A stretch of 7,781 bases of DNA from a virus (taxonomy: Monodnaviria; Loebvirae; Hofneiviricota; Faserviricetes; Tubulavirales; Inoviridae): the IMG/VR virus record IMGVR_UViG_2529292923_000001; one strand, given 5' to 3'. Both the position numbers and the translations under genes were made by a program. Of the stretch, positions 7,731 through 7,781 are shown in pieces (positions within the stretch are counted from its first letter, which is position 1; each line of letters begins with the position of its first letter). The notes beneath the pieces are model-generated. The model had not been told where the DNA came from, did not search any database, and saw only the letters and a list, made by a program, of their open reading frames with translations.

Positions 7731-7766
7731 AGGCCGCTGCGGTGGAAAGTATCGCAGCGGCCTTTT
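7731..7766 (+). terminator. rho-independent terminator (potentially bidirectional)
   Basis: 9-10-bp GC-rich stem (7731/7732-7740 ggccgctgc pairing 7754-7762/7763 gcagcggcc) with a 13-nt loop, followed by TTTT (7763-7766) and preceded by AAAAA (7726-7730). Confidence 0.7.
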
Positions 7767-7781
7767 CAACATAACGCGTGT
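7764..7781 (-). other. XerD-arm-like motif of a dif-like site, truncated by the right window edge
   Basis: TTTCAACATAA (7764-7774) matches 9 of 11 positions of the reverse complement of the dif XerD arm (ATTTAACATAA), in the same orientation as the half site at the left edge. The following CGCGTGT does not match the dif central region. Confidence 0.35.

Follow-up and report, generated by a model that had tools for sequence, protein, structure and literature searches.

Several filamentous phages enter the chromosome of their host at dif with the help of the recombinases XerC and XerD. For CTXphi, Val et al. reportedly described in 2005 an attachment site (attP) of folded single-stranded DNA (ssDNA) made up of two parts, attP1 and attP2. 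The published mechanism starts with folding of the (+) ssDNA; a single strand pair is then exchanged by XerC alone, and the resulting pseudo-Holliday junction is resolved by replication, integration being irreversible (PMC3089051, PMC3442271). Descriptions of CUS-1phi (from Escherichia coli O18:K1:H7) and YpfPhi (from Yersinia pestis) attribute to both phages inverted XerC/XerD pairs suited to ssDNA integration of the CTX type. In Vibrio phages, integrative mobile elements exploiting Xer (IMEX) have also been reported whose sites mimic just one arm and the central region of dif. Here we compare these systems with the junction region of an inovirus in IMG/VR record IMGVR_UViG_2529292923_000001. 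The whole stretch analysed, 7,781 nucleotides long, is called the window, and its two ends are halves of one attachment site. We consider it very probable that the element is a dif-integrated E. coli inovirus whose junction folds, as ssDNA, into a dif mimic for host XerC and XerD, much as in CTXphi.

The window covers a prophage, an inovirus integrated at the dif of E. coli, and its ends are cuts at the attachment sites. In 15 complete E. coli genomes, full-length copies of about 99% identity lie between hipA and a LysR-type gene, the same locus at which MG1655 carries dif (GGTGCGCATAATGTATATTATGTTAAAT). In L002, a single lysogen, the left junction reads ATTTAACATAA TATACA TTATGCGCAC / TGTTATC, that is, a complete dif followed by phage sequence, and ATTTAACATAA TATACA TTATGCGCAC T is found again in L249 and L252. 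The right junction of the same copy, GGCCTTTTCAACATAA CGCGTGTCACA TTATGCGCACC / AACATAAACC, is composed of the motif TTTCAACATAA from the right edge of the window, an 11-nt spacer, the host XerC arm and the host flank. At this hipA-side junction the motif is wholly phage-derived. Two bases tell host from phage: position 1 of the XerC arm (G in the host, A in the phage) and base four of the central region (A versus G). Because of how these two differences are distributed over both junctions, the crossover is confined to the 13 shared bases GTGCGCATAATGT, which lie within the XerC arm plus TGT and are centred on the XerC cleavage position.

The outcome is a dif regenerated on the secretin-gene side, identical to dif at 27 of 28 positions and, to judge by this identity, probably functional. 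The hybrid at the hipA end (host XerC arm, 11-bp spacer, motif) should be dead, in that canonical Xer recombination should not use it. The same junction topology at the same locus is shown by an unrelated inovirus in strain Sx181-0-1 (L252). Tandem copies are present in L001, L249 and L003-L005. The internal tandem junction (L001, L249) reads TTTCAACATAACGCGTGTCACATTATGCGCACTGTTATC and carries the palindrome uninterrupted, and here it can be seen that the end (CGCGTGT) and the start (ACATTATGCGCACTG) of the window are contiguous in the phage, with a single C between them that is absent from the window and seen at every tandem junction.

Closed in this way, the circle contains two dif-like XerC/XerD pairs in inverted orientation, as does CTXphi: attP1 consists of 7764-7781, the additional C and 1-14, attP2 of 7703-7729 (Table 1). 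Neither is a duplex site with the canonical central region of 6-8 bp, the spacers being 11 nt and 5 nt long, respectively. A VGJphi-type single duplex site with 6-7 bp spacing was not found in the circularised window, where the sole composite match has the 11-nt spacer. By established inovirus biology the packaged (+) strand should be the coding strand, here the minus strand of the window. Its order from 5' to 3' is AGTGCGCATAA - TGTGACACGCG (11 nt) - TTATGTTGAAA - GC-rich hairpin - TTTATACATAA - CGCCA (5 nt) - TTGTGCGCACT, and the junction region as a whole forms an imperfect palindrome of about 98 nt in the circular genome. For the surrounding 126 nt of the coding strand a single hairpin of -43.7 kcal/mol is predicted (z = -10.7; 0 of 200 shuffles as good). 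The base of this fold is a 15-16 bp duplex including the XerC arm; above it come a bulge of 6 nt, a second duplex, which contains the XerD arm and has a single G.T wobble and a single bulged T, and at the tip the apical GC stem with its loop. The bulge is formed by the middle six nucleotides of the attP1 spacer (TGACAC on the coding strand), and the TGT after the XerC arm can pair with the central region TGTATA of the host dif, as in CTXphi. Folded like this, the packaged strand is predicted to be a dif mimic, with XerC and XerD duplexes around a bulge, that is present only in ssDNA, like attP(+) of CTXphi.

Table 1. Parts of the attachment site in window coordinates, following the circle across the window ends.
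Feature	Position	Strand	Remarks
Outer stem base AC	7701-7702	-	Beyond the Xer arms; pairs with GT 15-16 across the circular junction (fold)
attP2 XerC-arm-like 11-mer AGTGCGCACAA	7703-7713	+	9/11 to dif GGTGCGCATAA; fold partner of the XerC arm 4-14
attP2 short spacer TGGCG, 5 nt	7714-7718	+	When folded, TG pairs with one end of the long spacer and GCG with the other
attP2 XerD-arm-like 11-mer TTATGTATAAA	7719-7729	+	8/11 to dif; fold partner of 7764-7774
Apical hairpin GGCCGCTGCG/CGCAGCGGCC, 11-nt loop 7742-7752	7732-7762	unstranded	A-run 7727-7731 and T-run 7763-7766 on the flanks; tip of the attP fold
attP1 XerD-arm-like 11-mer	7764-7774	-	TTATGTTGAAA on the phage coding strand, TTTCAACATAA on +; 9/11 to the dif XerD arm
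attP1 spacer, first 7 nt CGCGTGT (+ letters)	7775-7781	-	Full spacer CGCGTGT-C-ACA is TGTGACACGCG on the coding strand
attP1 spacer, last 3 nt ACA (coding TGT)	1-3	-	XerC-proximal half of dif central TGTATA; inner crossover limit
attP1 XerC arm AGTGCGCATAA	4-14	-	10/11 to dif; belongs, in lysogens, to the dif regenerated on the secretin-gene side
Stem-base flank GT	15-16	-	Partner of 7701-7702 (fold, pair counts)

An earlier note on this DNA had pointed to the right edge of the window, where it saw an 11-mer resembling a XerD arm on the T-tail of a hairpin terminator and took it for part of a putative phage recombination site. Along the plus strand the bases here are AAAAA (7727-7731), the stem GGCCGCTGCG (7732-7741), the loop GTGGAAAGTAT (7742-7752), the returning stem CGCAGCGGCC (7753-7762), TTTT (7763-7766), C (7767), AACATAA (7768-7774) and CGCGTGT (7775-7781). 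The motif TTTCAACATAA (7764-7774) does overlap the tail: it begins with the final three T of the T-run 3' of the GC-rich stem. This overlap arises because the outer half of the XerD arm is A/T-rich (TAAAT in dif) and here lies against the apical GC stem. The assignment to a recombination site also held up, the element being integrated at dif according to both its junctions and the locus in MG1655.

Is the resemblance to a XerD arm meaningful? The reverse complement of the motif, TTATGTTGAAA, agrees with the XerD arm of E. coli dif, TTATGTTAAAT, at nine of 11 positions, with two mismatches. Taken alone this is at chance level: XerD-arm-like 11-mers with up to three mismatches number 51 in the window against an expectation of 37.8 +/- 5.5, five further sites besides the motif have exactly two mismatches, and XerC-arm-like 11-mers with up to two mismatches occur twice (2.15 expected). 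It is the context that carries the case, since a composite with a XerC arm appears once the window is closed into a circle. A XerC arm with at most one mismatch, followed after 5-12 nt by a XerD arm with at most three, is found once in the circularised window; among 3000 first-order Markov resamples, 14 contained such a composite (mean 0.005). The earlier note had left room for the 7-mer AACATAA being coincidental. This was rejected by the composite statistic, by the conservation of the motif, which is invariant in the cassette family described below, and by its presence at the prophage-host junction. The motif is the arm of the phage attachment site that XerD, following the CTXphi paradigm, would bind.

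Other parts of that first interpretation need revision. The bases CGCGTG after the motif were read correctly, but they are only the start of the 11-nt spacer CGCGTGT-C-ACA, which resumes at window positions 1-3, and not a 6-nt central region: counted across the window ends, motif and XerC arm are separated by a non-canonical spacer of 11 bp, in which just the last three bases (ACA, TGT on the other strand) agree with the dif central region, on the XerC side. A canonical 6-bp reading was tried and rejected, as it would leave ACGCGTTATGT as the XerD arm, with only 5/11 matches to dif by hand count. Neither is the XerD side degenerate, given its 9/11 agreement with dif and its invariance in all 24 distinct cassettes of the family. 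The junction mapping that had been set as a check placed the crossover where a Xer reaction is expected to place it, on the XerC side, and not in or beside the motif. The inverted partner site at 7703-7729 had gone unmentioned. The supposed terminator hairpin is the tip of the fold of about 98 nt in which the motif pairs with 7719-7729.

A CTX prophage array was analysed in the same way as the window to serve as a control. Its coding strand reads AGTGCGTATTA - TGTGGCGCGGCA (12) - TTATGTTGAGG - a forked hairpin of about 90 nt - CGTAACATAA - TGGCGTA (7) - TAATACGCATT; the dif-like sites agree with the published Table II, allowing for strand, and dif1 is regenerated at the zot/ctx end. This comparison with a characterised dif-integrating phage, also advised in the earlier note, returned the same attP(+) topology. 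In both phages the packaged strand carries inverted dif-like sites with the long-spacer site 5', a TGT 3' of the XerC arm that matches the host dif, a XerD arm that starts TTATGTTGA with a G.T wobble at arm position 8, and two duplex spacers that are non-canonical. In both, dif is rebuilt downstream of the morphogenesis genes and a dead hybrid remains at the regulatory end, tandem arrays are formed, a phage recombinase is missing, and RstA-like and RstR-like genes are present.

By its genes the element is an inovirus. Secretin, Zot/pI ATPase, a DUF2523 (pVI-like) protein, a coat-B-like protein and a Rep_trans initiator are all encoded on the minus strand, as judged from Pfam and from the RefSeq annotation of identical copies. 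The Rep is 33% identical to CTXphi RstA. A divergent 71-aa regulator (6996-7211, plus strand) shares 68% identity over 56 residues with an 'RstR-like' repressor from a V. cholerae CTX prophage of non-O1/non-O139 type; this likeness is far closer than the mutual 33% of the Rep proteins. The Pfam scan of 13 open reading frames (ORFs) of the window gave no integrase, transposase or recombinase domain, and the RefSeq annotation agrees. An Rfam scan of the window was without a match, as was a megablast of the whole window against the phage collection.

There are also differences. The dif sites themselves are distinct (AGTGCGTATTA/TGTATG in V. cholerae versus GGTGCGCATAA/TGTATA in E. coli), and the whole site takes up about 98 nt in the window phage compared with about 150 nt in CTXphi. 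Unlike CTXphi, the window phage has A and T runs beside the apical stem, which give it the look of a terminator, encodes its own secretin, and is known here from sequence alone.

The CTXphi paradigm suggests how such a site would be used. The packaged single strand would fold and be bound by host XerC and XerD, upon which XerC alone would exchange one strand pair with the chromosomal dif directly 3' of its arm, the common TGT stabilising the exchange. Replication would then convert the intermediate into a prophage, and integration would be irreversible. Additional copies can stack in tandem. The product derived from the CTXphi mechanism, host-GGTGCGCATAA / TGTGACACGCG…phage…AGTGCGCATAA / TGTATATTATGTTAAAT-host, equals the observed junctions. 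For the window phage we infer the ssDNA route, catalysis by XerC only and Xer dependence by analogy with CTXphi. The mechanism would be the same known one, of which this phage is a further example, and not a new one. A related phage is found as an episome in E. coli A37, where a circular 'plasmid unnamed4' (NZ_CP195780.1, 1-7439; L251) contains inovirus coat, Zot, secretin, Rep and G5P genes and an intact attP of the folded type at about 4577-4674, on the coding strand and just 3' of the secretin gene. Strain A37 has chromosomal matches as well.

Along the same lines, relatives of the site were collected. A blastn search with the junction region recovers a cassette of about 95 nt in 900 of 5,426 complete E. 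coli genomes. It belongs to at least five otherwise unrelated E. coli inoviruses, and many inoviruses of IMG/VR have it too. In E. coli it accompanies a 665-aa 'replication endonuclease' (L003 and L252), another Rep (L004 and the episome L251), a phage that is IKe/UPphi-like by annotation (L005, with a cassette of family A, see below) and, at dif, the assembly module of the window combined with a different set of Rep, single-stranded DNA-binding protein and regulator (L249). Between the phages concerned the cassettes are 82-98% identical, the morphogenesis proteins 50% identical at most or unrelated, and the Rep proteins members of different families. The reverse case is L250 (NZ_CP098223.1), in which the assembly module is 97.8% identical over window 69-5124 while the attP cassette is absent. 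The module is joined there to a 667-aa 'replication endonuclease' and an IS110-family transposase and sits at a non-dif locus, between a ybiB/PLD-family gene and hcxB. One assembly module is paired with two integration strategies, that of L249 and the window and that of L250. Because the carriers are unrelated and L250 goes without it, the cassette tracks dif integration and not replication or assembly.

Pattern scans were run over IMG/VR and over GTDB genomes. For the latter the pattern, AACATAAN{8,14}TTATGCGCA, was too permissive for a search space of 596 Gb. The GTDB hits listed are mostly chance matches from unrelated phyla that do not fold end to end, and informative loci are few, including L079 from Lelliottia and L082 from Pseudoteredinibacter. 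Two families can be distinguished. Family A, with the E. coli loci included, holds 24 distinct cassettes with a common GC apical stem. Family B comprises about a dozen sites built on the same overall plan as family A, but with apical parts that are unrelated and often forked; of those tested, all but L082 lie on contigs with Zot- and/or Rep-like genes.

In the family-A alignment the XerD arm TTATGTTGAAA is invariant in 24 of 24 sequences. So is the TGT, which no pattern fixed, and the stems are nearly so; variation is concentrated in the bulge, which contains the most variable stem-internal columns, and in the loop. When pairs are counted over the 24 cassettes, 95.3% of cells are paired, compared with 29-52% for slid partners. 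Five pairs change on both sides, among them stem-base positions beyond the Xer arms. These flanks covary between phages, from AC/GT in the window to TC/GA in L003 and CC/GG in L207 and L252, and the pair at alignment columns 22/84 is G:C in the window, G.T in L003 and A:T in L004. The XerC-arm duplex has a T.G wobble at arm position 9 in 19 of the 24 sequences. The fold of the coding strand is the more stable one in all 24 family-A sites and in 10 of 13 family-B sites (the 13 include CTXphi), and G.T wobbles are found almost exclusively on the coding strand. Site orientation follows the Zot/Rep strand in 21 of 23 contigs.

Several points weigh against an ssDNA site of the CTXphi kind. The prophage junctions fit a double-strand recombination at attP1 equally well and are no proof of the ssDNA route. 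The opposite strand folds nearly as well as the coding strand (-42.4 kcal/mol). Among the scan hits, the conservation of AACATAA and TTATGCGCA holds by construction, both having been fixed in the patterns, which did not fix the TTTC of the motif. Strand asymmetry and pair counts come from related sequences and do not represent independent events. Two related 12-13 kb IMG/VR contigs with family-B sites are exceptions to the orientation with Zot/Rep (L170, 398-507, and L215, 1366-1499); they may be mixed arrays, or true exceptions to the rule that the long-spacer site is 5' on the coding strand. Finally, the spacers are 11 and 5 nt long versus 12 and 7 in CTXphi, and in place of the CTXphi fork of about 90 nt there is a simple hairpin of 31 nt, with 10 bp in the stem and 11 nt in the loop.

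Could the duplex suffice? The replicative form might recombine with dif via duplex attP1 only, in the manner of VGJphi or of a 'one-armed' IMEX, with the XerD-like arm, the inverted partner and the hairpin idle. Exchange within GTGCGCATAATGT gives exactly the observed junctions, and the IMEX of Vibrio phages provide a precedent for one arm plus central region. We nonetheless judge this unlikely. The duplex spacers would be 11 bp and 5 bp, set against 6-8 bp in known XerCD substrates (6 bp in dif, with an upper limit of 8 bp in cer), and the 6-bp reading fails on its XerD arm, as described above. Such a route also leaves unexplained the conserved inverted partner, the two-sided pair changes, the covarying stem-base flanks and the strand asymmetry, and the same architecture in CTXphi is, by experiment, an ssDNA site. 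That the region is chiefly a bidirectional intrinsic terminator, in which the likeness of T-run and AACATAA to a XerD arm is incidental, appears very improbable, even though its position and stability invite the thought. The apical stem lies between convergent units, the small plus-strand ORF with its end at 7693 and the minus-strand operon, which faces it in circular or tandem DNA and has its secretin stop at 253; as RNA it folds with -32.9 kcal/mol on the plus strand, as a 10-bp GC-rich stem with U-runs in both directions. This does not account for TTTCAACATAA being invariant while the loop varies freely, for the motif lying 10-12 nt from a XerC arm in many phages with differing apical stems that have no T-runs, or for its place at the prophage-host junction of dif-integrated copies. 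A consensus scan for terminators and promoters did not call the hairpin (its rules ask for a loop of at most 8 nt and at least 5 T), which counts against a terminator role, as do the 11-nt loop, the mere four T/U on the plus strand (five on the minus strand), the reading CTCTTTA of the coding-strand T-run in 14 of 24 family-A members, and the family-B sites and CTXphi, in which T-runs beside the apical stem are missing. A terminator role can accompany the attP role and not replace it, and as such an addition it is plausible that the stem with its A-run and T-run terminates both convergent phage units.

Least probable of all, to our mind, is a packaging signal and/or complementary-strand origin downstream of gene IV, Ff-like, to which the dif-like arms would be secondary. 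The packaging-signal hairpin of Ff lies just downstream of gene IV, and in the circular genome the present hairpin is likewise just 3' of the secretin gene; short GC-rich hairpins are also packaging signals in integrative Xanthomonas inoviruses. A packaging signal should, however, co-vary with the assembly proteins, whereas the cassette remains 82-98% identical among phages in which these are unrelated, and L250 retains the assembly module without the cassette. From the cassette-less L250 it follows that the packaging signal of this module is elsewhere, plausibly within window 69-252. The apical hairpin is perhaps a host-dependent minus-strand origin.

CUS-1phi and YpfPhi, compared by description, resemble the window phage as enterobacterial dif-integrating inoviruses with dif rebuilt at the prophage 3' end and with tandem arrays. 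The window phage is most likely different from CUS-1: its morphogenesis module occurs in 31 of 5,426 complete E. coli genomes, and among the matches listed there is no strain name that we recognise as O18:K1:H7. An attempt to recognise CUS-1 through Rep similarity to the UPphi-like L005 was dropped, there being no close Rep among the E. coli relatives. With VGJphi the window phage shares homology on the XerC side and would share the use of host XerCD at dif and a XerC-first exchange. The VGJphi site is a single 29-bp duplex with near-canonical spacing and its integration is reversible, in contrast to the two inverted sites of the window phage with 11-bp and 5-bp spacers. A TLCphi-type site, with a degenerate XerD arm and XerD-first exchange driven by the activator XafT, does not fit the XerD arm conserved at 9/11 and the crossover on the XerC side; on the small ORFs of the window there was no Pfam match of any kind, XafT (DUF3653) included. 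UPphi and IKe-like inoviruses also have Enterobacterales hosts, integrate in tandem at dif and carry accessory genes beside the site (PMC7307601), but their core genes are unrelated to those of the window. The UPphi paper speaks only of 'a copy of the dif site', with a repeat matching about the first 15 bases, and contains 0 occurrences of 'hairpin' and 'inverted' (PMC7307601).

Some observations concern the surroundings of the site. A second and cleaner terminator-like hairpin is present at 7297-7325 on the plus strand (CCCCCGTGTTACAAGACGGGGG followed by TTTAT), 3' of the regulator gene. It, too, is absent from the list of the scanner; its loop fits the rules and its tail has only four T. Just 5' of attP2 lies a 46-aa hydrophobic ORF (7553-7693, plus strand) for which L003, a phage unrelated in other respects, has an equivalent of 50% identity in the corresponding place. 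It has no Pfam match, and its recurrence suggests that it is probably a real small gene travelling with the cassette. In L250, a long GC-rich palindrome is found near 5875-5960, at the secretin-gene end of the element. On large E. coli plasmids a truncated cassette was observed, consisting of the attP2 half, the apical hairpin and TTTCAAT, after which unrelated sequence follows; blastn places it at 503 plasmid positions. Its neighbours, with L006 (6001-6069, plasmid NZ_CP094340.1) as an example, are an IS200C remnant on one side and a gene of the STM4504/CBY_0614 family on the other, and an efflux operon of the MacB/TolC type is close by. The truncated copy resembles the fossilised end of an inovirus prophage.

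Two further features lie in the morphogenesis genes. The zot gene (gene I; 1530-2491, minus strand) is split in the window into ORFs of 241 and 75 aa, where L001 has a single coding sequence of 352 aa. The copies differ in homopolymer length (GGCAAAAAG versus GGCAAAAG and ACAGAAAAGC versus ACAGAAAGC) and by an indel of about 100 nt near 1590-1600; the split is either an assembly error or the mark of a decaying copy. A pIII-like ORF (2862-4385), the putative receptor-binding protein, contains a long Gly-Thr/Gly-Ser repeat (GTGSGTGT...) at 3130-3345 on the minus strand. The length of the repeat region varies among genomes, and the match in L001 spans 7,933 bases compared with the 7,781 of the window, a difference that includes the indel near 1590-1600. 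This suggests a variable linker like the one described for g3p in UPphi/IKe.

What does the site tell us about the family? Folded attachment sites as a kind are already known from the CTXphi paradigm and from CUS-1 and YpfPhi. In the literature examined, the compactness of the cassette, its spread over unrelated inoviruses and its plasmid fossils are absent. A wider view, which we offer as a speculative and rather doubtful one, is that the cassette of about 98 nt is a compact, self-contained and horizontally exchanged integration module, and that folded sites of the CTX type are far commoner in gammaproteobacterial inoviruses than the three textbook cases. One hairpin may then serve as an ssDNA dif mimic, as a bidirectional terminator that insulates convergent operons and perhaps as a host-dependent minus-strand origin; the cassette may have passed between at least five lineages that differ in their Rep and assembly modules and have left its truncated fossil at about 500 E. 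coli plasmid places. If this is true, E. coli becomes a minimal and tractable model for single-strand Xer integration.

There is a practical side as well: where a prophage caller seeks only a 28-bp dif copy, it puts the borders of such elements in the wrong place. The few cases thought to integrate as folded ssDNA via host XerCD gain an E. coli phage and a family of related cassettes. With about two-thirds of the length of the CTXphi site, the present site belongs to the organism with the best-characterised Xer proteins, which would ease its biochemistry. The integration cassette travels on its own, separately from the replication and assembly modules, and this bears on how filamentous prophages spread in pathogenic E. 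coli.

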